Below the pieces are notes generated by a model, which worked only from the letters and a program-made list of their open reading frames with translations, did not search any database and was not told the origin of the DNA. DNA of 64,000 nt. Source: a virus. How positions within the stretch are numbered: the first letter of the stretch is position 1; each line of letters opens with the position of its first letter. The DNA lies in the IMG/VR virus record IMGVR_UViG_3300021599_002733, one strand, 5' to 3'. Below are positions 47 to 59,401 of this stretch, piece by piece. The translations under genes were made by a program, and so were the position numbers.

Positions 47-1771
47 TTACCCAAAAGAAACTCCAGTTGGTAATATATTGAAATCCAAGTAAATGAATTC
101 TGATGTTTTAGTTGGTTGTAAATAAATAGCACCTATCAATTGGTTATTGTCTATTGTTGTAGGTGTATTGTTTGTCTCATCCATAACTACTCTAAATGCA
201 TATAAACCGTTTCTTTGTTGAACTGATGATAAATATGGGTTAACTTGGAGTAAGAAGTTGTTACGCGTTGCAACTGTGTTTTGTTCAAATACAAGTGTAT
301 CTGCAATTTGTGTAATGTAGTTTTTAAGTTCAATTAATAAACGTCTAACGTTTACACGATCGAGTGCACTTGCTTTCTTTTGTAGTGTTTTTTGTCCAAA
401 TACTACAACTCCAACATTTGGAAATGTTGCAATTGGGTTTACATTTGCTTCATATAACGTGTCTCTGTTTCCTTGAGTTAAATATCTTTCAGCCATTATT
501 ACTGTAGGCATTAAACCACGTGTTGTTCCAGCAGGTGCAAACCATGCTTCAGCAGCATTATCGTTAAATGCATATACACCAGGAATCATTGTTGAAGCAG
601 GTACCCATACTTGTTGACCTGTTCCCGGATCAATTGTACGAACCCAAGGCCAATATGCAGCAGCATATGAAGAATCTATACCAGATGCTTCTAAAGCAAC
701 AGATGATACTTGAGATCCGTATGATTTAAGATCAAATACCAACATTGAATTTCCATTATTACTGCAAACAGAATCTAAAAGACTAATAGTTGAAGTATGA
801 GATGAAAAATCATATATTAACCCAGGTACTGTGATAAAATTAAATTTATATGCATCTTTGTTAGAGAGCAAATAAATAGAATCGGTGTATTCTGATGCTG
901 GGATACCTTGTGGTAATGAATCACTAATATTTTCATAGTAATTACCTGTACCGTTTGGTAGGTTAGAACCAAATGCAGCTCCAAATGTTCCGCTAGCGGC
1001 AGTTGGAATAGATGCTGTGTATTGTGGTTTTGGGTTACCTGAATTATCTAGGTAATTTGGTGTGGTAATGTTAACTTGTTTTACTCTAACATAGCTTGAA
1101 GCATTTCTGTAACTTCCAGATAATTGGATATAGAATTCCCCACTATCAGAGGCTACATTTTCAGCTTGGTTACCAATTACTTTCTCTATGTAGTTTGAAG
1201 ATAATGGATCTAAAGATAATGGGCCCCATGATTCTAGAATAGAAGGGGAGTTTGTTGAATCGTTTCCTCGTCTAATCAACAATGAAAATGTTCCGGTGTT
1301 GATATTTGGAGAAACAATTTGCCATCTAAAGTTATCTGCTGATCCTGAAGGTAAAGTACCATCTGCGTTTAGAGGGCTAGTGCTGTTCATGATTTGTCCT
1401 TCAGATAATGTCTCTAGAACAAATACACTGTTTAAAGAACCCGAATCAGGGATAAATGAAGAAGTAGCAGGACTCCAATGAGTACTACCACTTACTACTC
1501 TAGTTACAAGCAATGAAGCACCTCCATTCTGGAAGTAGTTGTATGCTGAAATTGATGTGAAGTATGAGTAGGTTTGGCTACCACTTAAGAATGTATCTCC
1601 ATATTTGTTTAAATATTCACTATATGTTGTTACAATAGTTGGGATTCCTACAGGTCCTTTAACTGTAGGTCCTATAATTGCTGCTCCAGCTTGTACAGGT
1701 TGTGTTGTAACAAACGATTGATCGTTTTCAATTGCTAAAACTCCTGGGGATATTAATATTTCTTGTGGCAT
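47..1771 (-). CDS. Contractile tail sheath protein (T4 gp18-like)
   Basis: N-terminal SPGVLAIEND..GPTVKGP; C-terminal YWPW, WFAPAG..RG, LYEANVNPI, FGQKT, RVNVRRLL, FEQN, PTKTSEFI sheath motifs. Confidence 0.96.
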   Translation of the reverse strand: MPQEILISPGVLAIENDQSFVTTQPVQAGAAIIGPTVKGPVGIPTIVTTYSEYLNKYGDTFLSGSQTYSYFTSISAYNYFQNGGASLLVTRVVSGSTHWSPATSSFIPDSGSLNSVFVLETLSEGQIMNSTSPLNADGTLPSGSADNFRWQIVSPNINTGTFSLLIRRGNDSTNSPSILESWGPLSLDPLSSNYIEKVIGNQAENVASDSGEFYIQLSGSYRNASSYVRVKQVNITTPNYLDNSGNPKPQYTASIPTAASGTFGAAFGSNLPNGTGNYYENISDSLPQGIPASEYTDSIYLLSNKDAYKFNFITVPGLIYDFSSHTSTISLLDSVCSNNGNSMLVFDLKSYGSQVSSVALEASGIDSSYAAAYWPWVRTIDPGTGQQVWVPASTMIPGVYAFNDNAAEAWFAPAGTTRGLMPTVIMAERYLTQGNRDTLYEANVNPIATFPNVGVVVFGQKTLQKKASALDRVNVRRLLIELKNYITQIADTLVFEQNTVATRNNFLLQVNPYLSSVQQRNGLYAFRVVMDETNNTPTTIDNNQLIGAIYLQPTKTSEFIYLDFNILPTGVSFG

Positions 1772-1791
1772 TTGCTATTTAGTTATAAATA

Positions 1792-2055
1792 TTATAGAGA
1801 TGATGTAATTTCACCTGTTTGTGGGTTGAGATTAACTCTCCCATATTTTTCAAATACGAGTTGAGTGAAATCTTGTTCTTTTTGAGATACTTCGGATAAA
1901 AAAGCTTTGGCTTTTTCTCGTCGTTCTTCAAGTTGGAACTTGATCAGTTCAATTTCACCTAGCTCATTGATTAGAGCTTGTGTTTCTTGTTGGATTGTGT
2001 TTAGTGTTTGTAACTCTTCTTGGGTTAAAACTTTGTTTTCTGTAACTGTTTCCAT
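1792..2055 (-). CDS. Small coiled-coil hypothetical protein (possible fibre assembly chaperone)
   Basis: 87 aa, heptad-rich, KYGRVNLNPQTGEI tail, directly downstream of a fibre gene. Confidence 0.6.
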   Translation of the reverse strand: METVTENKVLTQEELQTLNTIQQETQALINELGEIELIKFQLEERREKAKAFLSEVSQKEQDFTQLVFEKYGRVNLNPQTGEITSSL

Positions 2056-2065: not shown

Positions 2066-4165
2066 TTATAGGGTTAATTTACGCCAAGCACTTCCGCTTC
2101 CAAAATAAAAATCTCCACTTGAAGAGAATGCAATAGCACCATTTGTAACTGTTGGGAGAGGGGAAGTTGGTTCAATAGTTAATAAATCTCTAGTATAAAG
2201 TGATCCTGTTATACCCGCTGTTACATTTAATGAGCCAGTTATTGTAGTATTACCGTTAACATCTAGTTTTGTGTTTGGGGTTGCAGTTCCTATACCAACA
2301 TTACCTGACCCTGATATTCGCATACGTTCTACGCCGGCGGTTAAAAACGCCATACTGTCATCGGTATTATTATAATTTACCAATCCGTAATTACCTGTGG
2401 CTAATCCTTTTGAAAATAATACCCCAGCATTAGATGCAGTGGATGCGGCTAATTCTAAATAATTTTGTCCAGCTATATTCTCAGAATATACTACAGTCCC
2501 AACACCTCCACGTTTTGCAGTAGCTGAAGCAGATCCGGATTTGATATGTAATAATGCTAACGATGATGTAATACCAATACCGACGTTACCTGCGGCATCA
2601 ATTATAAATGGCGTTGCATCTGGATTTGTGGAATCTTCAACTAGGAATGATGCTGATGTTGAGGTATTATTTACATGGAATTTAGCATTAACTTCAGTAG
2701 GAAGACTTACTCCGACCCCAACATTTCCATTAGCTTGTATTGACATACGGATTAAATTTTCCGTTGCAAATAACATTCTGCCTCCTATGGGTTGGTTAAA
2801 TAATCTTAAATCTGTTGACCCAGAACTGCTGTATCCTAAATATCCAAATCGAGTTCCACCACTTTGAGGATAGAATTCTTGGAACATGTGATCTGTTCCT
2901 TCAAGTCTTAATATAGCAGGACCTCCGGAAACATGTAATTTAACGGAGGGTGTAGTTGTTCCTATACCAACGTTACCAGAAGCATCAATAACAAATGGTG
3001 TTGTATCTGGATTGGTTGAATCTTCTACTAAGAATGAGTTGCGTGTACCAACATTTGTTACATGAAGTGTTGCACTTCCGCTTTCAAGTGGACTAACTCT
3101 AGGATTTCCTATCAATACTTGACTGGCAGATGTAATATACATAGCCTGCGATATATTGTTAACAACAAAAGCAATACCAGCTGCCGTTCCTGCATTTAAT
3201 CCTAGATTTCCATTGGAATTTAAGTTAATAATATTTCCGGAGCCCGGAGATATGAATGTTGTAGAAAAAGTTTGCGAACCAGATGTTATGTTTAAACTTC
3301 CAGATGATATATTTAAACTACCTGTTATTCCGTATGATCCACTTAATTGATTGGTATGTTCCCATACTCCAAAAGAGCCACTTTGTTTATATACCCAAAG
3401 ATCTCCATAACTGTAAGATCCTGATTTGTATACAGAACTTAAATCTGAAAAATCAAGTGGTTGTTGTACAGCAACATATATAACACCACTTGTTCCAGGG
3501 GATGCTTTCACACATACACCTACAGGAATAATTTCATAGGGTGCTGAAGGGGCTGTATTTTGTAAGGCACCTGATGAGCCTGTTCCTACAAAAAGTGTAT
3601 CACCATCGTTAAATACATTTGTGTTTAATCCTCGAACTAGACCTTGTGTTGTTACATATCCAAAACTACTATCTTCAATAGTGTGAGTTGCAACACCTAA
3701 TATTTGGGTATCTACATTTATACTACCTGATTTGGCTATAGATTGTGCTCTTTCTATTGTAGGGGCATCACCTTGTGATCCTATAATTCTTACAACAGTA
3801 CCATTTGTTACGGTTGTTCCCGTATTGTTTCTAACACGGGTCCAGTTTTCCTGTCCTACTTGTAATGTTACATCTGCTTCAGCATTATATACCGATAATG
3901 CTCCATCTACATTATCCCAAAACACACGACCTGATTTCCAAGCAGGTACAGCTGAGCCTGTATTAAAATCAATATAATCCACATTATTTATGGATCCAGA
4001 CATTTGTAGGTTATTGGAATATGAAGCTGTTAGGGCATAGCTAGAGGAAATTGCGTTTAGAGCATATGATGCTGTTCCATGTAAAGATCCTGTTATGCTT
4101 GGAGCATATAATGAGTTTAATTCTGCATCACTACCTGAGGTGATGACTTTTTTCCAACTTGGCAT
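2066..4165 (-). CDS. Tail fibre segment with GNVGIGT repeats
   Basis: Four GNVG(I/V)G units, duplicated SFLVEDSTNPD.TPF.IDA.GNVGIG block, Ser/Gly/Thr-rich. Confidence 0.85.
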   Translation of the reverse strand: MPSWKKVITSGSDAELNSLYAPSITGSLHGTASYALNAISSSYALTASYSNNLQMSGSINNVDYIDFNTGSAVPAWKSGRVFWDNVDGALSVYNAEADVTLQVGQENWTRVRNNTGTTVTNGTVVRIIGSQGDAPTIERAQSIAKSGSINVDTQILGVATHTIEDSSFGYVTTQGLVRGLNTNVFNDGDTLFVGTGSSGALQNTAPSAPYEIIPVGVCVKASPGTSGVIYVAVQQPLDFSDLSSVYKSGSYSYGDLWVYKQSGSFGVWEHTNQLSGSYGITGSLNISSGSLNITSGSQTFSTTFISPGSGNIINLNSNGNLGLNAGTAAGIAFVVNNISQAMYITSASQVLIGNPRVSPLESGSATLHVTNVGTRNSFLVEDSTNPDTTPFVIDASGNVGIGTTTPSVKLHVSGGPAILRLEGTDHMFQEFYPQSGGTRFGYLGYSSSGSTDLRLFNQPIGGRMLFATENLIRMSIQANGNVGVGVSLPTEVNAKFHVNNTSTSASFLVEDSTNPDATPFIIDAAGNVGIGITSSLALLHIKSGSASATAKRGGVGTVVYSENIAGQNYLELAASTASNAGVLFSKGLATGNYGLVNYNNTDDSMAFLTAGVERMRISGSGNVGIGTATPNTKLDVNGNTTITGSLNVTAGITGSLYTRDLLTIEPTSPLPTVTNGAIAFSSSGDFYFGSGSAWRKLTL

Positions 4166-4258: not shown

Positions 4259-5077
4259 TTATATATATCGGAACTCTTTAAAGAACCAATCGTATTTTGA
4301 TTTGATAAAATTGCATGTTTGACTTCCTAGTACTTCTTTGTATGTATTTTGTACTGGTTCTACTTTTTGTCTGATGTTGTGGTCACCATATATTCCATAC
4401 ACTTCATCATCCTCTACTGTAAGTTGTTCTACATTGTCAAAGTCGTGTTGGTATGTTGAAATATTTAAATATCCATAAATTTTATCCATAGTTTGTTGTG
4501 GGTTGGATGTTAAATCTTCAAATTTTACAAACAATACCTTTTCCCCTATTCCCTCATGCAACATTTGTTGGATGCGCTCAAATGCTAATCCAACAGGAGG
4601 TGTTGAAGACCATGTTTCTACACGTTTTTGTGTAGTTGTGTTTTGCATTTTTGAATGGTTAACAAAACCAGGATCTTTGTCAGGATTCTTTCTATAGTTT
4701 TTTTCCATAGAAGCATATATAGCTCTAGGATCCCGGACCATACATACAATTTTAGGTTCTGGGTAAAATGAGTTTAAGAATCCATAATGTATTCCCCATC
4801 CTCTTGACTTATCCATTACATATAGTTTGTTTGTGATTCCGTTGAAGAATCCAGACAATGCATATACGCAAAACGATTGGAATCCACGACGCATCAATTC
4901 ACTATCTTGTGCTTTGAATTCGGGTGATGAACTATAGTTTGCTCTAGCAGCATATAATAGCTCTAAAACACCTGAAGTTGGTGTAACATAAAAGTCTGGG
5001 TTTTGTCCTATAATGTTTTGTAATAGAGTGGATCCTGCTCTTGGGAGAGAGGATTGGAAAAATATCTGTTTTGGCAT
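4259..5077 (-). CDS. Sulfotransferase (Sulfotransfer_3 type, RaxST-like)
   Basis: 5'-PSB loop SLPRAGSTLL, 3'-PB motif VRDPRAIYAS, DKSRGW, FEDLTSNP, HDFDNV. Confidence 0.9.
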   Translation of the reverse strand: MPKQIFFQSSLPRAGSTLLQNIIGQNPDFYVTPTSGVLELLYAARANYSSSPEFKAQDSELMRRGFQSFCVYALSGFFNGITNKLYVMDKSRGWGIHYGFLNSFYPEPKIVCMVRDPRAIYASMEKNYRKNPDKDPGFVNHSKMQNTTTQKRVETWSSTPPVGLAFERIQQMLHEGIGEKVLFVKFEDLTSNPQQTMDKIYGYLNISTYQHDFDNVEQLTVEDDEVYGIYGDHNIRQKVEPVQNTYKEVLGSQTCNFIKSKYDWFFKEFRYI

Positions 5078-5438: not shown

Positions 5439-8258
5439 TTAAGCGTAGATATAAATATCACTTCCAGATACTCTGATGTTTCCGTTTTTCTGGTATTTTG
5501 CTATATCTGATTGACCACCGTCTACATCTACTACAGCTGCAATGTATGCTTCTGGTGCGTAGCTAGTGGAAGTAGCATTGAACGATCCTGTGAATCCCCA
5601 ACGTTGTACTCCACTGTCATATCCATATAGCTCACCTATATTTTGGGTTCCTTGTTGAACTACAATACCACCATCTCCTGTTGCATTTGAGCCAGAAGCA
5701 AACAATACGAATCTATCTGCCACTAACAGATTTTCTGCGTTTTGGAAAGATGCTGTACCTTGTACTGTAATATCTCCTTGGAATAAAGCGTCTGTTGAAA
5801 AAGTAACTAACGTTCCATCATCCGTAATGCTAGTGTTTGCAAATGCATCTCCTGTCCACTTTGTAAGTGTGTTTGAGCTTAAAGCAGAAGCACCCGATAC
5901 TTCAACTGTTACGTTTGAGGTACCATTGTATGTGAATGTTGAGATACCTGTTCCGTTTGACGCTGAACTTGCTAGGTATGAAGCAGATATTCCTGTTAAT
6001 CCACTACCATCTCCTACAAACGAACCTGTAAATATAGAACCAGTTACTGGTTGGTTAAATGTGATGCTTTGTGAGTTGAATAAAGCTAAATCGCTTCTGT
6101 TTGCATCATCTACACCGTTACCAATTACTACTAGCGAATCTAGATTGTTGTGGGTGTTGTATTTACCCGCTGCTAATTGACCAGAACCAGATGCGATAGT
6201 GTGTAAACCTTCAGCGTGTGATACAGGACCATATGCAACTGTACTTTCACCTTCAGCGTGAGAATAATCACCTAATGCTATTGATGTATCACCTTCTGCG
6301 TGTGAAAATGAACCAGATGCTATTGTACCAGAACCTTCAGCATGTGAATAATTACCGGATGCTGTTGTTCCTTGTCCTTCAGCATGTGAATAATTACCGG
6401 ATGCTGTTGTTCCTTGTCCTTCAGCGTGTGAACTATAACCAGATGCTGTTGTACTAAGACCTTCTGCATGGGAATAATTGCCGGATGCTGTTGTTCCTTG
6501 TCCTTCAGCGTGTGAGTATGAACCAGATGCTGTTGTACTACTACCTTCTGCATGGGAATAATTGCCTGATGCTGTTGTGGTATTACCTTCAGCGTGTGAA
6601 TAATTACCGGATGCTGTTGTGGTATTACCTTCAGCGTGTGAATAATCACCGGATGCTGTTGTAGTACTACCTTCTGCGTGTGAACCAATTGCAGATGCTA
6701 CCGTTTGGTAACCTTCAGCATGAGAGTATGAACCAGATGCTATAGTTAAATAACCTTCTGCGTGTGAATATAAACCAGATGCCGTTGCGTCTCTACCTTC
6801 TGCGTGTGACCATGAACCAGATGCTATAGTTCCGTTACCTTCTGCGTGGGATGCATATCCGGATGCTGTTGTACCGTTACCTTCTGCGTGTGATGTATAC
6901 CCAGATGCTGTTGTACCACCACCTTCAGCATGAGAATAATTTCCAGATGCAGTTGTAGTATCACCTTCTGCGTGTGAATAATTTCCAGATGCTACTGTAT
7001 TAACGCCTTCTGCATGACTCCACGCTCCACTTGCAGTTACATTTAAACCATTTTCAAATCCACCATTTGCTCTAACATTCATTAAAGCGATAGATTCGGA
7101 AACTAGTGTAAATGAGTTTGAACCTACATCAACTGAACCTGTAACAGATCCTGTTGCAATTTGGTTAGATTCAAATGATTGTGTTGGTAAATTAGTTAAC
7201 CCACTACCATCACCTTGGAATGAACCGGAGAATGAACCGGAGAATAAACCATTTTCCCAATCTACTATTATATCTCCATTAGAATTATTTAATTGTCTAT
7301 TATCAACCCAAACAGCTCTACTACCGTTTAAATCAAATAATTCAAAACTAGATCCTGATTGGGCAAATACTATTTGAGAATTGTTATTATCTATACTAAC
7401 TTGCCACTGCTCAGTGATAAGATTAATATTGGAACCAGTTACATCCAATGATCCCGTTACTGAGATTCCATTATCAGCTCTTAACTCCATTGAATTATTT
7501 GTACTGTAATTGTCAACTTTTACATAAGTTGTATCATCACCTAAAAATAACCAACCGCCGCTTGCTGTAATGTGTGTATCTTGAGCAGCTGTATTATAGA
7601 TTTCTAAGTATCTAGCATCATTTGAATCAGGTTGTAGTTTTAAACTACCCGTACCTTTAATATTACCAGTTACAGTTAAAGATCCGCTCAAAACAGCATC
7701 ACCAGAAGAGGAGATGTTGAATAGATCAATTGAGCCACTTGAAACTGTAAATATATCGCCACTTAAATCATCTACTATGCTAAATAGAGCACCACTAGAG
7801 CCACTTACTTCAAATACTGTTGAACCTGAGTTGTACAAAGTAGTTAATCCAATTACCTCTAAGCTACCTGATATAATAGCAGACCCTGTGTATGGGAATG
7901 GAGATACGGAAGGTGCATATGAAGCAGATGTTGCTGTGTCCGCATATGAACTAGATAATGCATATGAACTTGATTCAGCATATGAAGCACTAGTTGATGT
8001 TTCAGCATATGAAGAGCTTGTAGCTGTTTCAGAGTATGAAGCACTTGTAGCTGTTTCAGCGTATGAAGCACTCGTTGCAGTGTTAGCATATGATGCTGAT
8101 GTTGCATATGATGCGGTACCTGTAAAATCTCCTATAAAGGAACCACTAAAGGAGCCTGTTAAATAAGCTCCATCTTGCCCTTGAATTAAATAATTTACGT
8201 CATTGTTGAGTTGCGATATATCACTACCCGAGACAACAACTTTTTTCCATTCTGCCAT
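5439..8258 (-). CDS. Tail fibre/adhesin segment with YadA-head-like 14-aa repeats
   Basis: 20 SHAEG..T.ASG repeats, ASYA repeats near the N-terminus, fibre-like C-terminus. Confidence 0.85.
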   Translation of the reverse strand: MAEWKKVVVSGSDISQLNNDVNYLIQGQDGAYLTGSFSGSFIGDFTGTASYATSASYANTATSASYAETATSASYSETATSSSYAETSTSASYAESSSYALSSSYADTATSASYAPSVSPFPYTGSAIISGSLEVIGLTTLYNSGSTVFEVSGSSGALFSIVDDLSGDIFTVSSGSIDLFNISSSGDAVLSGSLTVTGNIKGTGSLKLQPDSNDARYLEIYNTAAQDTHITASGGWLFLGDDTTYVKVDNYSTNNSMELRADNGISVTGSLDVTGSNINLITEQWQVSIDNNNSQIVFAQSGSSFELFDLNGSRAVWVDNRQLNNSNGDIIVDWENGLFSGSFSGSFQGDGSGLTNLPTQSFESNQIATGSVTGSVDVGSNSFTLVSESIALMNVRANGGFENGLNVTASGAWSHAEGVNTVASGNYSHAEGDTTTASGNYSHAEGGGTTASGYTSHAEGNGTTASGYASHAEGNGTIASGSWSHAEGRDATASGLYSHAEGYLTIASGSYSHAEGYQTVASAIGSHAEGSTTTASGDYSHAEGNTTTASGNYSHAEGNTTTASGNYSHAEGSSTTASGSYSHAEGQGTTASGNYSHAEGLSTTASGYSSHAEGQGTTASGNYSHAEGQGTTASGNYSHAEGSGTIASGSFSHAEGDTSIALGDYSHAEGESTVAYGPVSHAEGLHTIASGSGQLAAGKYNTHNNLDSLVVIGNGVDDANRSDLALFNSQSITFNQPVTGSIFTGSFVGDGSGLTGISASYLASSASNGTGISTFTYNGTSNVTVEVSGASALSSNTLTKWTGDAFANTSITDDGTLVTFSTDALFQGDITVQGTASFQNAENLLVADRFVLFASGSNATGDGGIVVQQGTQNIGELYGYDSGVQRWGFTGSFNATSTSYAPEAYIAAVVDVDGGQSDIAKYQKNGNIRVSGSDIYIYA
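6185..7040 (-). repeat. 42-nt coding tandem repeat (about 20 units, SHAEGxxTxASGxY)
   Basis: Directly visible; some neighbouring units are nucleotide-identical (about 6335-6425). Confidence 0.95.
7910..8120 (-). repeat. Short coding repeat (T/S)SASYA, 18- and 27-nt units
   Basis: TASYATSASYANTATSASYAETATSASYSETATSSSYAETSTSASYA... Confidence 0.9.
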
Positions 8259-8303: not shown

Positions 8304-8708
8304 TTAATCAAGTCCTATATATAGCGCACCTGATGTGAAGTATATTGCACCATTTGGTGCCGGGTTTGTTAATGTTAGTGATTGTGTGGATAGTGTTACC
8401 ATACCACTTTGAGATACCGCTAAAACAGATGTTCCAACAGCATTTTTGATTAGAAACAAATCAGAAGCACTACCCGAAATTGTGGTTTGTCCTTGTGAAT
8501 CTACTTTTAAAAATGGAATGCTACCGGACGAGATCAAGAATACATTTGTTCCAATATTAAGTTGAGTTGATCCAGTTACAGTTAAAGATCCAGATATGGT
8601 AATGTCATATGCCTCTATACCAGTAAATGCATCCACAGATTGGGATACATGCCACGGTCTAACTACACCTAGGGATACAATGGATGATTTGTCGAGTATT
8701 TTTGCCAT
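8304..8708 (-). CDS. Short fibre-proximal/adaptor protein
   Basis: ISGSLTVTGS and FLISSGSI motifs shared with the neighbouring fibres; C-terminal NGAIYFTSGALYIG. Confidence 0.7.
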   Translation of the reverse strand: MAKILDKSSIVSLGVVRPWHVSQSVDAFTGIEAYDITISGSLTVTGSTQLNIGTNVFLISSGSIPFLKVDSQGQTTISGSASDLFLIKNAVGTSVLAVSQSGMVTLSTQSLTLTNPAPNGAIYFTSGALYIGLD

Positions 8709-9666: not shown

Positions 9667-9673
9667 ATCAGGT

Positions 9674-9704
9674 TATAAATATAATACGATTATAAATATT
9701 TATA
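9674..9704. promoter_or_regulatory. Divergent promoter region containing the palindrome TATAAATATTTATA (9691-9704)
   Basis: Window-wide TATTTATA motif present in both orientations between divergent starts at 9666 (-) and 9719 (+). Confidence 0.7.
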
Positions 9705-9718
9705 GTAAATGGATAAAC

Positions 9719-10294
9719 ATGAGTAAAAAACTAGAACAACTTGAGATACAAAAACTGCTCCAAGAATATAGTTTTTTGCTACTGGATGAGGAATATAAGT
9801 TGGAAGTTGTGGACACTAACAAGATGGAGTTTTTAAATAAAGTACGCGAGATTACAGGTGCATTACCTGAACCGCCTCCACCGCCTCCACAAGAGGAGCA
9901 AGATGCTCCACCACCCAAAAAGGAAAAGATAGATCCTTCCACAGTGGATCCTTCCACTAGAGACAAGGTTAAGAAACTCTATAGAGAGATAGCTAAAATC
10001 ACACACCCCGATAAGGTAAATTCAGAGGAACTAGTTGATTTGTATATGCGCGCAACAGTAGCGGCAGAGGAATTTGACTTGTTTACTTTATTTGAGATAT
10101 GCTCTAAATTGCAAATAGAGCATTCAGTGGATGGGGAAGATAAAGAAATTTTAAAGGTCAAAATAGACAAGAAGAAAGATAAACTCAAGAACATTGAAGG
10201 GTCTTTCATATGGTTGTATGCACACGCTAAAACAGAACAAGAAAAACAATTTTTAATTAACCAATTTGCAGAAAAACATGGCAGCAAAATCTAA
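9719..10294 (+). CDS. J-domain (DnaJ-like) co-chaperone; start corrected to ATG at 9719
   Basis: VKKLYREIAKITHPDKV (HPD motif) after a polyproline linker; the longer ORF overlaps the gp15-like gene in antisense. Confidence 0.8.
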   Translation: MSKKLEQLEIQKLLQEYSFLLLDEEYKLEVVDTNKMEFLNKVREITGALPEPPPPPPQEEQDAPPPKKEKIDPSTVDPSTRDKVKKLYREIAKITHPDKVNSEELVDLYMRATVAAEEFDLFTLFEICSKLQIEHSVDGEDKEILKVKIDKKKDKLKNIEGSFIWLYAHAKTEQEKQFLINQFAEKHGSKI

Positions 10295-13403: not shown

Positions 13404-13410
13404 TGTTTGA

Positions 13411-50101: not shown

Positions 50102-50107
50102 TCATTC

Positions 50108-51115: not shown

Positions 51116-51128
51116 TTTTTATTTTTTA

Positions 51129-51791
51129 TTAGCTAACTCTATTAATAGTAATTGGAATTGTTAATCTAGCTCCACTATCTAAACCAACTACAGTTAATGT
51201 AGCTGCAAGTTGTGTATTAGAACCAAATAATGTATTTACAGTAGTTGCTCTTAAGTTAAACTGTGTTCCAAGAATTGTTTTGGAAACATTTGTACCTAAA
51301 GTAGCAGTAGCATTAACATTTGCCTCGTTAGCAGCTGTTGTATTAATACCAACTCCTGTATATGTGTTTAATAAACGAACATCTGATATAGTAGCTGAGT
51401 ATCCACTAGTTTCGTATGTTTGAGTATTTCCTAGATAATTTAATGTTTGTGGTGTGATTGAAAGTGCAGCTCCTTGTTGTAAAGTAATTGCTGTGTAACC
51501 CAAATCAAGTACAGGTAATTTAGCTGTTCCACGTGGTAGAGTAGCTAATTTGTATTTCATAATTTGTGTTTCTTGAGGAAATGCCTCTAGTAATGGCATA
51601 TTTTCAATAGCTTCTCCGTAAAATGAAGACCCTGATGGGTGGGTAGGGTTGTAAAGAGTGTAGTCAATTTCGTCATCTGCTAAAGCAAATTGTGTGATTC
51701 TAAAAGAACCATCGTTTTTTGCTAGTAATTCTCTACCTTTTGTTGTTAAAATTGCGTCGACTGTTACAACTTGATTATTAAGATATCCCAT
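51129..51791 (-). CDS. Baseplate-associated structural protein
   Basis: DAILTTKGRELLA...ITQFALADDEIDY. Confidence 0.7.
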   Translation of the reverse strand: MGYLNNQVVTVDAILTTKGRELLAKNDGSFRITQFALADDEIDYTLYNPTHPSGSSFYGEAIENMPLLEAFPQETQIMKYKLATLPRGTAKLPVLDLGYTAITLQQGAALSITPQTLNYLGNTQTYETSGYSATISDVRLLNTYTGVGINTTAANEANVNATATLGTNVSKTILGTQFNLRATTVNTLFGSNTQLAATLTVVGLDSGARLTIPITINRVS

Positions 51792-51831
51792 TTTTTATTT
51801 TATTATAAATATATTATACTAATAAATATTG

Positions 51832-54800
51832 TTAAAGCAAACCTTTCTGCGTAAGATCTACAATAAATGAATCAAGATCTTTATTTAGTGCAGGAACTAC
51901 GAATTCAGGTCTAATAATATACGGGCCTTGGGAGTTACCTGGTTTTAAGCCTTCAAATATAATAGTGGCAGCATCATCAATGTATCTTCGAATTAGAAAA
52001 TGATCTAGATTAATAGATGAAGATGGTAAAGCACTATTTAAATGAACCTCAACAGACCCTGTATTTGATATTCTTTCAGGGGATTGGTTTGTTGGGGTAA
52101 ATACTTTCTTAACAATGTATGTTCTATTTTCTTTACCTTCAAATCTAAATTCATCTCCTACTTTTATCGACCAATCTAAAGTTATATTTTCAAAACCTGA
52201 TCCTGATATATTTTGTTGGCGTATCCCGGGGAGGTTATAGTATGAGTTCAGAGAGGAGGTAACTTCTGGGATATATATAATTCCAGCTTGGCTAGATGAC
52301 ACCTGGTTATATGTGGATGAAGTTGGGTAATTCCAGATTGAGCTAGTTCCCACAGGAATTATTTGTGATGGGCTAGGGAGAGGATCTTGAGAAATATTAA
52401 AAAATGTTGGTGGATTTACAGATGTTACTTGAAGAGTTGTTCCATACCCAGTATTTTCTTCAGGTCCATCAATTTGAAATACCCCAAAATAAAATTCATC
52501 TGTTGAGGTAAAATCTATATCTGGAGTTAATTCTATATAGAATGGTACTGCTTTCTTTTGTCCTGGGGTTAGGGTTTCAAATTTAGTTGATATTATATCT
52601 CCACCATTATTTTTATATAAATTTATTTGTACTGTTGTTGGGGAGGGATCAACGGAATTATATCTAGCTAATCCGATTTGTGCATTTATTATGAGATTAA
52701 CCCCTTCAATTATAGTATCATTATCTACATTATATTGCCAATCAATAGATCTATTATTTCCGGCGTCGTATAGAATGGACCAACCTGCTGAAGAACTTGG
52801 GGAAAATCCTTGGTATTGTCCTATATAATGTTCTGTGTAAAATATTGATTGTCCTGTGTTTATAGAAGAATATGTATTTAAAGTAGAAACACATGTGTTA
52901 TCTGTAATGGTTTGGACTATTTCAGAATTATATAAATTTATAGAAGAAGTCCAATTTGGAGGAGTATGTCCTATTTGAGTATATAAAATAGGTTCAATTC
53001 TATATCCACCTTTAAAAATATTTCTATATGAACTTTCTCCGGACCCTATTGAATCTGTATTGATAATAAGTCTTTCTCCTGTTTGGAAAGTACCTTGAAT
53101 ATTACTTAATGAATTTTCTGTTGTGTTTGGAATATCAACATTACCATTCTGGTCTATTAAATATTTTACTATGATTCCAGAGCAATCCATTCTATCTGGG
53201 GTGTATCCTCCTATAGTTTCAGCATAAGCTACCCATGTTTTTAAAGTATCTACTGTAGGTAATTTTCCGTATGTTCCACTATCTCCTGATGTCCATTGAT
53301 TTAATCTTTGGGATGTTGATTTACTACCGTTATATCTTGGATTGGTATGTCTTAGTAAAGTATAATTTGAATCTTGAACAGCCGCTCTTTGAGCATCTCC
53401 TTCTATTATAAGATCAAAATTAGTTGGAACTAATATACCCGAAGAATAATCTACATCTTGGAATGTTGTACTAATTCTATCTTCAAATACATTATTCATA
53501 ATAGCATTTTCATCACTATTGTAGAAGTTTGCTGTTGTAATATATGGCTCAAATATAACATGGTCGCAAACAGAAGCTGTAGGGGTTATACTTTGAGTGA
53601 TTAATATGTTACTAGAAAGTAGTGTTAAGTTAGGGTTTAATATATTAGCTGTATATGCTCTTAAATATAATTTATCTCCTTGTACCCCATAATATGAAGC
53701 TGTGATAGTAGTTGTTGTATTTGAACCTGCTGATATTGGGAGAAAAGATAAGGCTGAATATTCTCCTTGTCTATCCAACATTAGTCTAAATGATCCAGCT
53801 GAGCCACTAGTTCTAATTGAGGCTGTAATTTGTAAAGGAATGTTTGGTGTATTTTCAGGGGTAAAATATCCTGAAGAGGTTTGAAAGTATGGGGTTCCGT
53901 AATGCGCTATATTCCCTAAACTAGTATCCCATGGATCTAACTTACCACTAAGTGGAAAAGCTTGTGGGGCTATAACTAATGGTAACGTTTGAGAACTTGT
54001 AATTGAAGAAGAAACATAATAGTTTTTAACTTCATTGTCCATTCCAGCTCCCGCTAAATCAACATCTTGGTTATTTATTCTATATAAATAATATGTTTGG
54101 AATTCAGATATATCTAAAACTTGATAGTTAGTATATGTTGAATTTGATGTGTATTTGATTAATAGATTATTAATTTGCCCTAATGGAATTGAATTATTAT
54201 TTCCGTTACAATCAAGTTTGCTAATTTTAATAAATGCTTCTCTTCTAACTACATTAAGTAATGGGGGAACTATTCTCCATCTAGGAATCATTATTAACAT
54301 CTCACCCGATTGTGGTTGGGTAGATGTATTTAAAAATTGTTCTTCTGTAAGTGTTGAAAAATTAGTTTGTCCATATAAACCATTCCTATAAACTATAGGA
54401 GTATATTCAAACTCACTTAAACTAAGTGGGTATGGTTGATTTAAACTACCAGTTGTAACAATAATGATAGAGCCACTAAACTCACCATTATAAAATTCAT
54501 CTTGTGAATCATGTAATATAGTAATGGATCCTGAAGGGGTAGAGTAAGTTTCGTTCCAGTTTTGGGATGTATTGGAAGCATAGTTAAATGGTTCAAACAT
54601 TCCAGCTGTTCCTCCACTAAATTCTTCAATTAAAGAATGAGATATATAACTGCTTTGAGATATAGGGTCCCATACTTGAGTAGATTTTATAGTACCAGAA
54701 ATATCTAAATCTTCCCAAGATACTTGTGGTTCAGGGTATCTATTTCTTTCAAGTAAATGTTGTTTAATAACAACTCCAGAAGCAAGACTTGTACGAGCAG

Positions 54801-57800
54801 GTACAAAATCTTTAATCATTTTGAATAATGAATTGTCAAAGAATTTTATTAAACGTATAAAGTCGTTTAGGTTATAGTTTTTAGTGTATTTTTCAAAGTA
54901 CTCATTTCTTAACTTATCTAAATTAGGGTATGAAGTTAAACGTGAAGATCTAAAAGCAGGATCACCTATAAACTCTCCAATATTAAAATATCCAATAGAT
55001 GAATTAATATCATCATTTATCTCATCTTGTGGTGAAAATGCTACCTCAAGTAAGTTAATATTTGGAGTATAACTTGCACTTGCCTCGGTTGTTTGAGCTA
55101 ATCTTCTAAATGGAGATAAGGTACTTCCCGAAGGTAGGTTATCATTTTCTAATCGTATTTTATCACTTACAGCATTTTTAATACCCGCTACAGGTTGATC
55201 AAAAAATAAATATTCAGTGTTTGGTTTGAATATTGGAGTTAAGTCGTAATAAAAATTACTATCTGTAGGGAATGATTGAGTTATAACCCAAGATCCTGTT
55301 ACTTTAGGGTGTATAGAAATAGATTCAGTAAAAAATTCTCCACCAATGGATGCTCTAAAGGCTAGTTCATTGGGTGTACTATTTAAAAAGTTACCCTCAA
55401 TTGAGTAAGGATTCATTGTATAATCCTTAAACACACTTGAGCTAATAACAGTTGTATAGTATCTAATTTCTTGGTACGAACCCGAGAATGGTTCATATGA
55501 TCCAGCTAATGATCCTGTTCCATCATATATTGCAGTATTGTCGTATGTTACTATATCATACCCAGATACTGTTGCAGCTGAAAATGAGATTGGGAAATAA
55601 CTTGTTGATGAGTTAGCCCAAGGTATATCATTTCCTGTTATAGAGGAAGATTCATAGAAACCTAAAATAGTTCCGTTATTTCCACCCTCATATATTTTGT
55701 TGGAGGCATTTAATGTAAATTCACTTCCACTTCTATTTACCATTACAGACCACCATCCACCATCAAAAAATGGTAGGTATACGCTTGCTGTAACTGTTAT
55801 ATTTGCTACATCGGGGTAAAATTCTAGAGTAGCGTATTGGTAGTAAGGGTCAATAATAGACCCGGAATATGAACCTGTAGAATATGCTGAACCTGTATAT
55901 CTTAGAGTAACAGCTGAGCCAGAATCATTTGACCATAAACTTTGGGAGTATCTAATATTTGCGGTAGGTAATCCTGGTGTTTGGAATCTAAATGCTAGAG
56001 TAGAAGGTACATCATCTGGGGAATTCCAATCGTTATTTAAAGTCCAAGATGAGGAAATAAAGTTATTTTCTTCTGTAGAGTAAGCATAGTTAAATTCATT
56101 TTGCCAATAATCCCAATCGTTTGAATCTACTTTATCTTTTCCACCATACTCATTTATTCTTAATATAGTATCAGGGATACCATATGAGGTGATAAGGGCG
56201 CGCAAACCAGGTAAGGTACCTTTTGATTTGAGTAGGTATGGTAAGTTATGGTAAATGCGTTTATATAGCGATTTATTCACATCATCTAACGGTATATAAT
56301 CGTTGGATGCAGATACTAAGGTATCAATATACTCAAACCCACTTGGTGTTGGTAAAGATCCTGTAATATTTGGGAATGGAAATAAACCGCCCTCAGGTGT
56401 TAAACCTAAAAACGCAGTATATAGATCATTGTTGGAAAAACTATTTTGATATAATTTAATTCCAAAATCACGTATAGCATCAGCTACTATATCTTTTGAA
56501 ATACCAGACTCTAAACGGTTATCAGCATTGAATTTTTGAGTAACATCCTTATAATATATCCAAATATTATCAAAATGTTGGGCAACCATATCAATGAACA
56601 ATTCATACGGTTCGTTGTTTGGGTCTTCTCTTAAATATTCTGGTATAGAGAATAAAAGGTTATCTTTATTATTTTCATCATATAATGAGGCAGATAATAT
56701 AATTCCTCCATATTGAGGACTATATTCGTTTGTACTACCAAACCAATTTAAAACATCTACACTTCCTGTTGTAGCTAATTGGTAAGGTGGTTCTGTATTT
56801 GTTTTAGGCCAAGCCCATGAACCGCTAGTGTAATATAAATAGTAATCCCAACCATCAAAGTTGGTTATAATATTGTTTATTTTAGATTCTAGAACAGCAC
56901 TACTTTCACTAACCGCTATTGATGATGAATTTGTTGTATTTAAGATAGCAATGGAGGATGAATATTGTTCTATTAAACTAACTTTATAGTAAAAATTTTC
57001 TAGTCTAGTTTGAGCTGAGCTAAAGTGAATATAGTCACTAAATGTAGTGTAGTCAATATTGATATCTATTTCTTTTTCCTCTAATAAACTATTTATTTGG
57101 TTTTGGGAACTAGTTAAAGATGTAGTTACTAAATCGGTATAAGATAATTCTTGTGTGGAATTGTTAACTTGATCTTTTAAATCAATGTTGAAATTTGGAC
57201 CTTTAATTCTTAAAGTATCATTGAATACTATTGGTTCTTCTATAAAAGATACTTGGTATGCTATTGGTTCTTCTACAGAAGATACAACCCATAATGTAGA
57301 ATTAACTAAAAAATCCTCAGGTAGAGGTTCATATAATTTAATTAATATAGTTGGGTTATTTGGATCTTGATTATCTAAAGCAATATTGTTTGCTATAAAA
57401 AGAATATTGTCTCCAAAATTTAAATAAAAATCTAAGAAATATGTACTATCTTCTCTCTGTTGAATAAAGGCATTTGTTTTTTCAACTATGTCTTGATTTG
57501 ATAAAACAGTACTATCTAATCTAATTTCAGTTCTATCTGAAGATATTTCAGCAATATATAATTGTTCAATATCTGAACCTATTTGCTTATTTAAAAAGTT
57601 ATAGTATGAAATATAAGCACCTTGAGTAAACCCATTATTAATTAGATTTTGTTCAGGGTTGATTGTAATTTGAGATAATACTCCATCACTACCTGCTGAT
57701 TGCCCATCATTTAAAACTGTATATTGGGTGAAATTATATTCAGTAGATAATAAATTTTGGTTAAGATCATATATAAAATACTCAATATAACTACTTGAAG

Positions 57801-57906
57801 ATAGAGAAGTATTGACATCAAAAGTAGATATCAAATTTGTATCTTGAGATTCATATAACTGAGTAGTTAAGTCTTGGGTGTCTATTTGTACTATTTCTAC
57901 TGCCAT
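51832..57906 (-). CDS. Large baseplate wedge/arm protein (2024 aa)
   Basis: IPEYL..FIDMVAQHFD and LLKSKGT..GLRALI..YG (gp7/P2 gpI-like), FVPAR; LamG-like middle region; baseplate synteny. Confidence 0.75.
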   Translation of the reverse strand: MAVEIVQIDTQDLTTQLYESQDTNLISTFDVNTSLSSSSYIEYFIYDLNQNLLSTEYNFTQYTVLNDGQSAGSDGVLSQITINPEQNLINNGFTQGAYISYYNFLNKQIGSDIEQLYIAEISSDRTEIRLDSTVLSNQDIVEKTNAFIQQREDSTYFLDFYLNFGDNILFIANNIALDNQDPNNPTILIKLYEPLPEDFLVNSTLWVVSSVEEPIAYQVSFIEEPIVFNDTLRIKGPNFNIDLKDQVNNSTQELSYTDLVTTSLTSSQNQINSLLEEKEIDINIDYTTFSDYIHFSSAQTRLENFYYKVSLIEQYSSSIAILNTTNSSSIAVSESSAVLESKINNIITNFDGWDYYLYYTSGSWAWPKTNTEPPYQLATTGSVDVLNWFGSTNEYSPQYGGIILSASLYDENNKDNLLFSIPEYLREDPNNEPYELFIDMVAQHFDNIWIYYKDVTQKFNADNRLESGISKDIVADAIRDFGIKLYQNSFSNNDLYTAFLGLTPEGGLFPFPNITGSLPTPSGFEYIDTLVSASNDYIPLDDVNKSLYKRIYHNLPYLLKSKGTLPGLRALITSYGIPDTILRINEYGGKDKVDSNDWDYWQNEFNYAYSTEENNFISSSWTLNNDWNSPDDVPSTLAFRFQTPGLPTANIRYSQSLWSNDSGSAVTLRYTGSAYSTGSYSGSIIDPYYQYATLEFYPDVANITVTASVYLPFFDGGWWSVMVNRSGSEFTLNASNKIYEGGNNGTILGFYESSSITGNDIPWANSSTSYFPISFSAATVSGYDIVTYDNTAIYDGTGSLAGSYEPFSGSYQEIRYYTTVISSSVFKDYTMNPYSIEGNFLNSTPNELAFRASIGGEFFTESISIHPKVTGSWVITQSFPTDSNFYYDLTPIFKPNTEYLFFDQPVAGIKNAVSDKIRLENDNLPSGSTLSPFRRLAQTTEASASYTPNINLLEVAFSPQDEINDDINSSIGYFNIGEFIGDPAFRSSRLTSYPNLDKLRNEYFEKYTKNYNLNDFIRLIKFFDNSLFKMIKDFVPARTSLASGVVIKQHLLERNRYPEPQVSWEDLDISGTIKSTQVWDPISQSSYISHSLIEEFSGGTAGMFEPFNYASNTSQNWNETYSTPSGSITILHDSQDEFYNGEFSGSIIIVTTGSLNQPYPLSLSEFEYTPIVYRNGLYGQTNFSTLTEEQFLNTSTQPQSGEMLIMIPRWRIVPPLLNVVRREAFIKISKLDCNGNNNSIPLGQINNLLIKYTSNSTYTNYQVLDISEFQTYYLYRINNQDVDLAGAGMDNEVKNYYVSSSITSSQTLPLVIAPQAFPLSGKLDPWDTSLGNIAHYGTPYFQTSSGYFTPENTPNIPLQITASIRTSGSAGSFRLMLDRQGEYSALSFLPISAGSNTTTTITASYYGVQGDKLYLRAYTANILNPNLTLLSSNILITQSITPTASVCDHVIFEPYITTANFYNSDENAIMNNVFEDRISTTFQDVDYSSGILVPTNFDLIIEGDAQRAAVQDSNYTLLRHTNPRYNGSKSTSQRLNQWTSGDSGTYGKLPTVDTLKTWVAYAETIGGYTPDRMDCSGIIVKYLIDQNGNVDIPNTTENSLSNIQGTFQTGERLIINTDSIGSGESSYRNIFKGGYRIEPILYTQIGHTPPNWTSSINLYNSEIVQTITDNTCVSTLNTYSSINTGQSIFYTEHYIGQYQGFSPSSSAGWSILYDAGNNRSIDWQYNVDNDTIIEGVNLIINAQIGLARYNSVDPSPTTVQINLYKNNGGDIISTKFETLTPGQKKAVPFYIELTPDIDFTSTDEFYFGVFQIDGPEENTGYGTTLQVTSVNPPTFFNISQDPLPSPSQIIPVGTSSIWNYPTSSTYNQVSSSQAGIIYIPEVTSSLNSYYNLPGIRQQNISGSGFENITLDWSIKVGDEFRFEGKENRTYIVKKVFTPTNQSPERISNTGSVEVHLNSALPSSSINLDHFLIRRYIDDAATIIFEGLKPGNSQGPYIIRPEFVVPALNKDLDSFIVDLTQKGLL

Positions 57907-58268
57907 TATTGTGGGTTAGCTAGTGGGGTTCCTGTTTGTAATTCTATTATTCGTTTTTGAGCGTCAAGTAGTTCAGTTCTTAATTGAGCTATTTCAGCTT
58001 GTAGAGCTTGTATTTCTTCATTATTTGCATCAAATCCAATATATTCACTACTTTTTTTAATTAAATATTCATGTGAATTTGCATCACCTGTTTCAGGAAT
58101 ATCATAGAACAAATCATTATACATTAAAAAAAATTCGTTAACAGTAGGCTGTTGTGCTAACTGTTGTTGAATAGTTTGAACACCTAGTTGTTTGAAAGAG
58201 GTGTCAATGATTTTTTGATAATCATTTTTATTATATACCTGTTTATTTAATTTAATATTTTCACTCAT
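57906..58268 (-). CDS. Small baseplate-region protein with coiled-coil tail
   Basis: Overlapping start/stop in the baseplate operon. Confidence 0.65.
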   Translation of the reverse strand: MSENIKLNKQVYNKNDYQKIIDTSFKQLGVQTIQQQLAQQPTVNEFFLMYNDLFYDIPETGDANSHEYLIKKSSEYIGFDANNEEIQALQAEIAQLRTELLDAQKRIIELQTGTPLANPQ

Positions 58269-59401
58269 CAGTTAATGACTTTAAAATAATATTGATCATC
58301 AAAAATAAGTGTAGAACCATTAATTATAGTCTTGATTAAAATCGCATAATATCTTTCTGGTTCAAGTCCATTCATGTAAATATCAAAATAATTCCCACTA
58401 GCATCAGAGCTAATTTGAGTATATTGAGTATCAAAGTTAATAATAAACTCATCAGTATCCAAGTCTTTTACAGCATAGAATGAAGAAGTAGGTAAAAAAT
58501 TCAAATCTACAAAGTAAGATGAAGTTTGGTATACACGTGTAGGGTATAAAGGGCTTGAATTAACTCTAAATCTATTTACACTATCAGTATAAAATACTCC
58601 AGGATTTTCGTTTAAAGCTAATTTTAGGTTAGTTGTAGTAACTATACTACCTGTTAAAGAACCTGTTAATACTGTTGAATAATCTCTCCATCTAAATTCC
58701 AATTGTGGAGGATAAATTGTATTTGTATCAACACTATAGTATTTTGCTACAGGTTGAACATATTGGCTATTTGTAAATTCAACTGAGTCTTCCCATTTAG
58801 TTATAAATCCGTAATTTGGGATAGAGCCGCTATACCATTTATCTACAATAGTTTTTACGTTTACATCTATATCCTTATCACTTCTTAATCCAAAAGATTG
58901 AGTTACTTTATATGATGGTACCCCAGACCCAGAATAAAACCAGTTACCTCCTCCTTGAGTTGAAAATGAGGGGTTAAATGAACTTGTATATAGTTCGGAT
59001 CCATTTGATCCACTAGCACTCCAAAGTCCTGATCCTGAATAGTTAGAGTATGTCCATGAAATTCCATCTTGGGTTTCAGGTGAATCACCAAATTCACCAG
59101 TTCCATTATTCCAATCTTGGGCAACTGGATAGATTTCAACATCATATTCTGAAGAGATTCCTTGGGCAGATGCTATAAATCCTTTAAAATGAACATCCCA
59201 AGTAGAGCCATTTATTTTATTATCGATTATATTTACTATTTCGTTGGAGTCAAATTGCGTTAAAAAACGAGCTACATCTGGGGTTCCTTCTGGGGTAATA
59301 GTATTATATATTTCGCTTATGGCATCCATTCCCGAGTTCATGCTCGGATAATAAGAGTATATGGAAGCATCCTTATAAGGGAATATTTTATAAACAGCCA
59401 T
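58268..59401 (-). CDS. Virion beta-sandwich protein (DNRLRE-like)
   Basis: KDASIYS, RFLTQFD, DWNNGTG, NYGFI, PQLEFRW. Confidence 0.6.
   Translation of the reverse strand: MAVYKIFPYKDASIYSYYPSMNSGMDAISEIYNTITPEGTPDVARFLTQFDSNEIVNIIDNKINGSTWDVHFKGFIASAQGISSEYDVEIYPVAQDWNNGTGEFGDSPETQDGISWTYSNYSGSGLWSASGSNGSELYTSSFNPSFSTQGGGNWFYSGSGVPSYKVTQSFGLRSDKDIDVNVKTIVDKWYSGSIPNYGFITKWEDSVEFTNSQYVQPVAKYYSVDTNTIYPPQLEFRWRDYSTVLTGSLTGSIVTTTNLKLALNENPGVFYTDSVNRFRVNSSPLYPTRVYQTSSYFVDLNFLPTSSFYAVKDLDTDEFIINFDTQYTQISSDASGNYFDIYMNGLEPERYYAILIKTIINGSTLIFDDQYYFKVIN

Follow-up and report, generated by a model that had tools for sequence, protein, structure and literature searches.

A Ser/Thr-Gly-Ser motif dense on outward-facing virion proteins of Far-T4 phages, a candidate acceptor site for phage-encoded glycosylation

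Results

Genes and motif of the window

The window, by which we mean the whole stretch of 64,000 nucleotides analysed here from the IMG/VR virus record IMGVR_UViG_3300021599_002733, is part of the genome of a T4-superfamily myovirus whose minus strand carries nearly all genes, and the subject of this study is a tripeptide, Ser/Thr-Gly-Ser ([ST]GS), that recurs in its virion proteins. A total of 104 [ST]GS sites were counted in 15 window proteins. Throughout the phage group concerned, the motif maintains a high density on virion proteins that face outward, that is, on the outer sheath, the fibres, the outer baseplate and an insertion of the capsid protein. The closest isolates are Flavobacterium phage immuto and Microcystis phage Mel-JY01, and Rhodothermus phage RM378 is more distant; together with the window phage they belong to the 'Far-T4' group (Roux et al., 2015; PMC4360716). 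In trees of TerL and portal, the Far-T4 phages formed a clade with 100/100 support, separate from a T4-like phage and a cyanomyovirus. The window sequence was also found on a 164,422-bp freshwater metagenome contig (JGI 3300008108 Ga0114341_10000025), in which the window starts near base 91,027. The annotated genes of the window include PhoH (20567-21265), a prohead protease (25932-26540), the portal (29511-31406), the large terminase (31453-33033) and a gp25-like baseplate protein (61270-61674), and a baseplate module extends from about 49112 to 63844, with large proteins that have no PHROG family match.

Enrichment of the motif

The 104 sites compare with 16.9 expected from global shuffling of the proteins and with 18.2, 19.2 and 19.7 expected from local shuffling in blocks of 30, 15 and 10 amino acids (aa), respectively, and none of 2000 shuffles attained the observed number. 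The excess is about fivefold (104 versus 17-20), and composition in Ser, Gly and Thr cannot account for it. A control that is blind to composition gave the same answer, since the excess depends on residue order: SGS occurred 66 times, versus 10 for SSG and 7 for GSS, and TGS 34 times, versus 3-12 for each of the five other orders. The third position was nearly always Ser (SGS 66 versus SGT 4; TGS 34 versus TGT 3), S or T preceded Gly-Ser in 100 of 136 cases, and N or D before the Gly was rare. The related triplets TAS and SAS, which the preliminary description of this DNA had reported to follow the same pattern, were order-specific as well, except in the repeat-rich fibre. The residues at positions -1 and +1 were hydrophobic in 55-57% of cases, against a background of 33%, and Asp was enriched merely 1.3-1.7-fold at -4 and +4. 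In its looser form the motif can be written hydroxyl-small-Ser, usually flanked on both sides by hydrophobic residues where a beta-strand ends.

Several trivial causes were considered and rejected. Composition or local low complexity is ruled out by the local shuffles and the residue-order comparison. Internal repeats are likewise rejected as the cause, as merging near-identical repeats collapsed just 7 of the 104 sites and left 97. The 100 sites in proteins with at least two of them are encoded by 59 different nucleotide 9-mers with ordinary codon usage, which indicates that the signal acts at the protein level and excludes a DNA-level cause such as a repeated oligonucleotide or a recombination signal. 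Avoidance of the motif in non-virion proteins was also evaluated; a set defined by position and function held 2 sites versus 9.9 expected (P 0.003), yet control phages show a similar deficit.

Another 66 kb of this genome was examined. There, a second sheath has 6 sites, two large tail proteins have 3 and 2, one small open reading frame (ORF) has 1, and no others were found. Just downstream of the sheath gene, the second sheath copy and the two large tail proteins were the only ORFs of 80 aa or more to contain [ST]GS.

Proteins carrying the motif

All of the following proteins are encoded on the minus strand. The 574-aa tail sheath (47-1771; PHROG 23, E 2e-70) carries 5 SGS versus 1.0 expected (p 0.003), at residues 63, 94, 110, 142 and 218, all within residues 63-220 in the outer insertion domains. 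Two fibre genes follow. The 699-aa fibre (2066-4165), with PHROG tail fibre matches, has 19 sites versus 2.4-2.8 expected (p<1/2000), and the 939-aa fibre (5439-8258) has 27 versus 5.6. A small fibre-associated protein of 134 aa (8304-8708), in which no Pfam family was found, has 4 sites versus 0.55 expected (p about 0.002), and its homologues at 11 related loci have 54 versus 11.3. Two further small proteins are a 240-aa protein (17674-18396; 3 sites versus 0.4 expected, p 0.007) and a 148-aa protein (20074-20520) with 2 sites, the immuto homologue of which has 4.

The 557-aa major capsid protein (22905-24578) has 3 sites versus 0.7 expected (p 0.03). They are located at residues 176, 215 and 233, in a region (113-297) without coverage by the major-head profile (PHROG 138 spans residues 298-539, and a weaker match covers 14-112); site 233 is the only one in common with immuto. 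In the baseplate module, a paralogous pair of 329 and 335 aa (49112-51115) carries 7 sites versus 0.5-0.9 expected and 6 versus 1.0-1.1, respectively. The orthologues of this pair have 4-5 sites each in immuto and Mel-JY01, and a few sites are kept as far as RM378. The 2024-aa protein (51832-57906) has 18 sites versus 2.9-3.3 expected, and the 377-aa protein (58268-59401) has 6 versus 0.7-1.2.

These numbers reproduce every hand count of the preliminary description (sheath 5, the 134-aa adaptor 4, 49112-50101 7, 58268-59401 6, capsid 3). It had further pointed to a complete lack of the motif in the portal, terminase, protease and scaffold (24605-25747), together 1739 aa; this is true but uninformative, because only 0.97 sites would be expected there. 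Its statement that the carriers are unrelated holds for most of them by BLAST, but the N-termini of the two fibres are related and 49112 and 50108 are paralogues.

Two side observations concern these proteins. A second sheath paralogue of 566 aa (Phage_sheath_1, _1C) with 6 [ST]GS lies directly after the sheath gene, to the left of window base 1 (L164:11785-13485). Locus L002 and the number of sheath-family ORFs recovered, 98 in 80 loci, suggest that several relatives also have two sheath copies; tandem sheath genes are unusual for a myovirus. In addition, the 5439-8258 fibre contains about 20 SHAEG units, often in the form T-x-A-S-G-S-[YFW]-S-H-A-E-G, with the tripeptides HAE and SHA occurring 20 times each. 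These units are similar to repeats of YadA-head (Hep_Hag) type, known from trimeric autotransporter adhesins, and the public annotation gives a faint YadA_head match.

The motif across phage lineages

The excess extends to the relatives of the window phage, where it is seen in 95 sheath-family sequences and in immuto, Mel-JY01 and RM378. The 98 sheath-family ORFs from 80 related IMG/VR loci have 561 sites versus 89.5 expected, again with a preferred order (SGS 372, SSG 79, GSS 38). Phage immuto has 117 sites versus 47 expected and RM378 53 versus 18.8, and two baseplate proteins of Mel-JY01 have 11 versus 1.4 and 9 versus 0.6. Neither excess nor order preference was found over all ORFs of the T4-like phage Sf23 (16 sites versus 26.9 expected; SGS 11 versus SSG 27) or of the cyanomyovirus S-SM1 (60 versus 49; SGS 31 versus SSG 36). 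The sheath homologues of Sf23, S-SM1 and LR756508, a 484-kb uncultured phage discussed below, have 0 sites, and no excess was detected in the proteins of these phages. As far as these sequences go, the excess is thus lineage-specific and not a property of the fold class. A beta-turn preference alone had been named in the preliminary description as a competing cause. In the sheath model the motif does lie at strand-loop boundaries, but the preference is absent from the homologous or analogous folds of Sf23, S-SM1 and LR756508; as neither the T4-like phage nor the cyanomyovirus shows an excess, the motif does not reflect a general beta-turn habit of myovirus surface proteins.

Position and turnover of the sites

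The AlphaFold model of the sheath had a predicted local distance difference test score (pLDDT) of 83.6 and matched the fold of T4 and other sheaths. In T4 gp18 the insertion domains form the sheath exterior, and we carry this over to the present sheath. In the model, a strand ends with S63, and the next two residues, G64-S65, form the loop of a hairpin; S218 is likewise at a strand end, and loops of the insertion domains contain the other three sites. Across an alignment of 96 sheath-family sequences, all sites fall between residues 60 and 300; four of them are kept in 70-80% of the sequences, and others come and go. The nine recurrent sites begin with S or T in 85% of the sequences, have G (74%), S (14%) or A (6%) in the middle and end in S (69%) or T (10%).

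These positions could be explained by a structural habit confined to the lineage, in which small hydroxyl-Gly-hydroxyl turns close beta-strands and provide an uncharged, hydrated, Ser-rich surface, and the glycosyltransferases and sulfotransferases described below act elsewhere. The strand ends and loops just described and the hydrophobic flanks are in keeping with it, and so are the persistence of several sites in most of the aligned sequences, the presence of NGT, SGG and SGT at the same columns, and the general richness of the carriers in Ser, Gly and Thr, which the LR756508 orthologues lost together with the motif. However, proteins of these fold classes in the T4-like phage and the cyanomyovirus lack the excess, and the preference for Ser over Thr at position 3, with few N or D before the Gly, is unlike ordinary turn statistics. 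Moreover, where the middle Gly is replaced, it gives way mainly to S (52%) or A (23%) rather than to the turn-formers N or D, and sites turn over while their density stays. We consider the structural habit a serious but less probable alternative.

The turnover itself is considerable, although alignment error in variable regions may inflate the figures. Only 3 of 14 sheath columns are common to the window, immuto, Mel-JY01 and RM378. When just the window, immuto and Mel-JY01 are compared, the 2024-aa protein has 4 shared columns out of 29 and the fibre 8 out of 57. Because so few site columns are shared and yet every lineage has an excess, the comparison suggests that selection acts on the number of sites and not through the inheritance of particular turns.

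Enzymes inside the window

Pfam bears out the enzymes that the preliminary description had recognised in the window, namely three sulfotransferases, a GT25 glycosyltransferase and a DUF2827 protein. No transmembrane-like or hydrophobic segment was found in any of them. The first sulfotransferase (Sulfotransfer_3/_1, E 5e-18) lies between the fibre genes on the minus strand (4259-5077), and its binding motifs for 3'-phosphoadenosine-5'-phosphosulfate (PAPS) are intact as sequence motifs (PRAGST at residue 12, RDP at 115). Orthologues with about 50% identity occur in 3 of 5 large related contigs (G001-G005). In G001 the orthologue is part of a cassette just upstream of the sheath gene (L088:6673-11795, with equivalents in G002 and G003) that comprises a GT-A-like protein, a GT-B, an FkbM methyltransferase, a 114-aa motif-bearing protein, the sulfotransferase, a 320-aa protein, an adenosine-5'-phosphosulfate (APS) kinase and a nucleotidyltransferase. 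This context of glycosyltransferases, FkbM and APS kinase fits a putative role in sulfation of a carbohydrate. As a side observation, a phage with this cassette appears to supply part of its own PAPS.

A second group of genes forms an accessory cassette inserted between gp14-like and gp15-like genes, two genes that lie near the sheath gene in the relatives. On the plus strand (9452-11522), a J-domain-like gene (9452-10294; weak Pfam DnaJ match) overlaps the DUF2827 gene (10266-11522; E 1e-97). On the minus strand follow, by their Pfam matches, a sulfotransferase with KTAGTS and RNP motifs (11580-12233), another in which only a KCGT-type loop was found (12239-12805), the GT25 (12789-13430), whose best solved relative is R655 of mimivirus (E 4.5e-5), and a leucine-rich repeat (LRR) protein (13411-14079). 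The cassette also has its own Ser-rich fibre of 1030 aa (14217-17309, minus strand; 15.5% Ser) with 0 [ST]GS, versus about 1.5 expected from composition. The Ser content of this protein is an even 12-19% over the first 1000 residues, with SAE and EAS as the commonest tripeptides, and the last 50 residues are similar to the C-terminal 50 of 17674-18396.

Among the best 120 of the 788 DUF2827 homologues, identity was 71-99%, and the pair of DnaJ-like and DUF2827 genes recurs in a phage contig unrelated to this genome (L173:7433-9206), where it adjoins a Peptidase_S74 fibre gene. The pair looks like a mobile, highly conserved two-gene module tied to fibres, judging from these recurrences. Sequence and profile searches of solved structures gave no match for DUF2827, and its model (pLDDT 54.9), too poor for a fold search, had a Rossmann-like beta-alpha pattern in the N-terminal half only.

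The preliminary description had attributed the motif to these enzymes. This attribution was compared with the distribution of their genes in seven motif-bearing relatives, i.e., the five contigs G001-G005, immuto, which is a complete genome, and Mel-JY01. No homologue of DUF2827, the GT25, the other two sulfotransferases, the LRR protein or the 1030-aa protein was found in any of the seven, and no Sulfotransfer_3 gene was found in immuto, though immuto has the motif. Since all of them but 4259-5077 are absent from the motif-bearing relatives, the window enzymes do not explain the motif. A full version of the attribution would be that the three sulfotransferases, the GT25 and DUF2827 build a sulfated glycosaminoglycan-like coat on Ser-Gly over the whole virion. 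In its favour, the enzymes are real and soluble, at least two of the sulfotransferases have PAPS-binding motifs, the genes are sited in the fibre/neck gene cluster, the orthologue of 4259-5077 belongs to what is apparently a sulfated-glycan cassette upstream of the relatives' sheath gene, and the nearest solved relative of the GT25 is a putative protein (collagen) glycosyltransferase. Apart from their distribution, however, the cassette's own Ser-rich fibre is devoid of [ST]GS, the flanks of the motif are hydrophobic instead of acidic, and no xylosyltransferase-type family was found among the Pfam-scanned window proteins. Such a coat is therefore an unlikely cause of the motif. In LR756508, which lacks the motif, a homologue of 11580-12233 with 31% identity (L177, 312825-313442) was observed about 6 kb from the glycosyltransferase GT-B1 of that phage.

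The best solved matches of 4259-5077 were TPST1 (E 0.01), a bacterial sulfotransferase and the heparan-sulfate 3-OST (E 0.16), all of them weak, and its acceptor class was not assigned from them, as E-values of 0.01-0.2 do not discriminate. They bear on a different explanation, which is that [ST]GS is a site of another kind, such as for Ser O-sulfation or phosphorylation, for docking of a decoration protein or an assembly chaperone, or for a host enzyme. The conserved pattern is indeed hydroxyl-small-hydroxyl rather than a Gly geometry, Tyr or Phe frequently follows the motif, and between the fibre genes there is a sulfotransferase with protein-tyrosine sulfotransferases as its best, albeit weak, solved relatives. 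However, matches in the Protein Data Bank at E 0.01 do not discriminate, a sulfotransferase of the 4259-5077 type is missing from immuto, and the hosts of the lineage (Flavobacterium, Microcystis and Rhodothermus) are unrelated, which makes a shared host enzyme unlikely. To our knowledge, no protein Ser O-sulfotransferase has been described. We regard a site of this kind as highly improbable.

The glycosyltransferase island and loss of the motif in LR756508

About 52 kb downstream of the sheath gene and outside the window, the same genome encodes in order GT-B1 (477 aa), GT-B2 (433 aa) and GT-A (207 aa), followed by a methyltransferase, a DegT-family aminotransferase, a PglD-like acetyltransferase and a further glycosyltransferase, GT2. 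The GT25 of the window is another phage-encoded glycosyltransferase of this genome. A crude hydropathy scan revealed no clear transmembrane segment in the island enzymes (highest value 1.73, in the PglD-like protein), and no flippase-type family was found among the called genes of the island. Orthologous GT-B1 (about 480 aa), GT-B2 (about 430 aa) and GT-A (about 207 aa) are common to this genome, G001, immuto and Mel-JY01. In RM378 the orthologues of GT-B1 and GT-A are clear, and a weak match to GT-B2 is in the expected position. Among 50,697 phage records, GT-B2 matched only immuto and Mel-JY01, and GT-B2 and GT-A were not found in Sf23 and S-SM1.

The capsid and sheath of LR756508 are as close to those of the window as are those of Mel-JY01 (48%), and the phage falls inside the clade bounded by RM378 in the TerL (support 87/88) and portal (92/96) trees. 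It retains GT-B1, and GT-B2 and GT-A were not found in it. Compared with the window proteins, its orthologues have 0 sites versus 5 in the sheath and 0 versus 7, 0 versus 6 (58268-59401) and 2 versus 18 (the 2024-aa protein) in three baseplate proteins; immuto and Mel-JY01 have 5 and 11 sites, respectively, in the last of these. The orthologue of 50108 keeps only deeply conserved sites (3 versus 6), and the LR756508 orthologues lost their richness in Ser, Gly and Thr along with the motif. The distribution of the genes is suggestive of a motif that tracks the GT-B/GT-B/GT-A set, with a single apparent co-loss in LR756508.

Other features of the genome

A promoter-like element, ATAT[G/T]TAT(A), shows a strand bias (23 versus 8 copies), and 13 of the 58 window genes have a copy no more than 80 nt upstream. 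ATAT[G/T]TAT was observed upstream of the genes at 47, 8740, 20074, 20567, 28613, 29511, 33680, 42356, 51129, 58268 and 61674, and also at L172:6183, 33 nt before a small gene that leads into GT-B1. Late co-expression of the sheath, portal and baseplate genes was considered on the basis of the element and was not established, since nonstructural genes have it too. In addition, genes for QueC, QueD (PTPS) and GTP cyclohydrolase I are grouped at L169:13299-17966 of the same genome, with GroES and GroEL genes near this group (L170:15817-17761). The presence of the first three suggests that the phage DNA is modified with 7-deazaguanine rather than with sugar, although sugar may also occur.

Discussion

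Tentatively, we take the most likely role of [ST]GS to be that of an acceptor site for phage-encoded O-glycosylation in the cytoplasm, with the window enzymes contributing strain-specific tailoring at most. According to this proposal, the soluble GT-B1, GT-B2 and GT-A would glycosylate a Ser or Thr of [ST]GS in the cytoplasm, and they are candidates that lie beside amino-sugar genes. The sulfotransferases, GT25 and DUF2827 of the window would belong to strain-variable cassettes embedded among fibre genes and at most tailor the glycan, by sulfation or an extra sugar, or modify their own fibre. The specificity for residue order, the restriction to outward-facing domains and to one lineage, and the turnover of sites at a kept density are as expected of an acceptor site under selection for density. 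Since soluble transferases and an amino-sugar pathway are conserved in phages of unrelated hosts, the acceptor would be intrinsic to the phage. That any residue is modified, which residue this is and which enzyme acts on it are inferred. The proposal of a virion-wide glycan coat in the preliminary description is thus retained in part: the excess beyond composition, the strand-end and loop sites on the sheath, and the soluble glycosyltransferases with an amino-sugar pathway speak for it, but neither the enzymes it named nor its analogy to proteoglycans is supported.

Several observations weigh against glycosylation at this motif. A purely structural turn motif would also show hydrophobic flanks and strand-end positions, and NGT stands in place of SGS at some sheath sites. 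The signal in the capsid protein is weak (3 versus 0.7). A real sequon might lead to depletion of the motif in cytoplasmic phage proteins, and this is not demonstrable here; for sets of proteins defined by composition, the ratios of 0.40-1.07 overlap those of Sf23 (0.47), S-SM1 (0.85) and LR756508 (1.3). The link between enzymes and motif involves one clade and a single co-loss, so it is confounded by shared ancestry; RM378 is on a long branch, and the tree of the major capsid protein is unresolved. The glycosyltransferase island could equally act on DNA or a small molecule. Furthermore, a search of the literature found no chemical data on virion modification for immuto, Mel-JY01, RM378 or Far-T4, no paper on the motif or on virion glycosylation in Far-T4, and no relevant work on phage sulfotransferases near fibres.

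For Far-T4 phages as a whole, a broader version may be proposed with some doubt. In these globally abundant aquatic phages, the entire virion exterior would bear a self-made glycan at [ST]-[G/A/S]-S at strand ends, attached in the cytoplasm by the conserved soluble GT-B2/GT-A pair, and the variable cassettes would diversify it by sulfation, methylation or additional sugars. If this holds, it would be the first known case of sequon-directed protein glycosylation in phage virions. The sulfation of a virion glycan is a conjecture. Such diversifying cassettes can be likened to O-antigen loci, which diversify cell surfaces.

Far-T4 phages occur widely in both lakes and oceans (PMC4360716), and cultures exist for three of them. 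If glycosylation at this motif is true, a strain-variable glycan made by the phage would have consequences for host recognition and antigenicity, for adsorption to particles and mucus, and for grazing and decay. A short, portable acceptor motif and soluble enzymes could then also serve for cytoplasmic protein glycosylation. If the motif is purely structural, it is still a sharp lineage-specific signature by which virion proteins that face outward can be recognised among genes without annotation.

Proteoglycans were the analogy chosen in the preliminary description. The attachment site of glycosaminoglycans in proteoglycans is Ser-Gly with acidic flanks, recognised by a xylosyltransferase. The Ser-Gly core and the sulfotransferases encoded nearby are alike. 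In contrast, the flanks of [ST]GS are hydrophobic, and the sulfotransferases and the motif are distributed differently among the relatives. The window proteins scanned with Pfam and the called genes of the island yielded no xylosyltransferase or linkage-region family; for the large structural and baseplate proteins of the window, the scan was against PHROGs only. The analogy therefore does not hold.

Another likeness is to bacterial autotransporters, whose heptosyltransferases act in the cytoplasm on a beta-helical passenger. In the Aah/AIDA-I and TibC/TibA systems, a glycosyltransferase hyper-glycosylates many Ser in the passenger repeats, and the mapped sites of TibA have a Ser followed by small residues, as in NSGG and TSAA (PMC4358343). 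However, the substrate there is a single repeat protein and here a set of unrelated virion proteins, and the motif differs; the likeness is mechanistic only. No BAHT or heptosyltransferase-type family was found among the Pfam-scanned window proteins or the called genes of the island.

Giant viruses are similar in that they encode sugar transferases for their own particle proteins, for example R655 and R699 among the collagen-modifying and fibril enzymes of mimivirus (PMC9546862). The likeness of R655 to the GT25 of the window is modest, though, its activity is putative, and the GT25 is an accessory gene absent from the relatives.

A comparison can also be made with mycobacteriophages, for which virion glycosylation is reportedly described by Freeman et al. 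in Cell Host Microbe (31:1216) in 2023. Glycosylation of mycobacteriophage virions by phage enzymes is known (as described in PMC12619734). As in that type, soluble glycosyltransferases of the phage would act on structural proteins in the cytoplasm, either before assembly or in its course, and produce a glycan layer on the particle. The two differ in that the mycobacteriophage glycans are on the C-termini of capsid and tail-tube subunits, whereas the [ST]GS sites are dispersed and internal to outer domains. The candidate set of two GT-B enzymes and one GT-A with an amino-sugar pathway is also different. A short sequon dispersed over many tail proteins would, if true, be a new variant of virion glycosylation.

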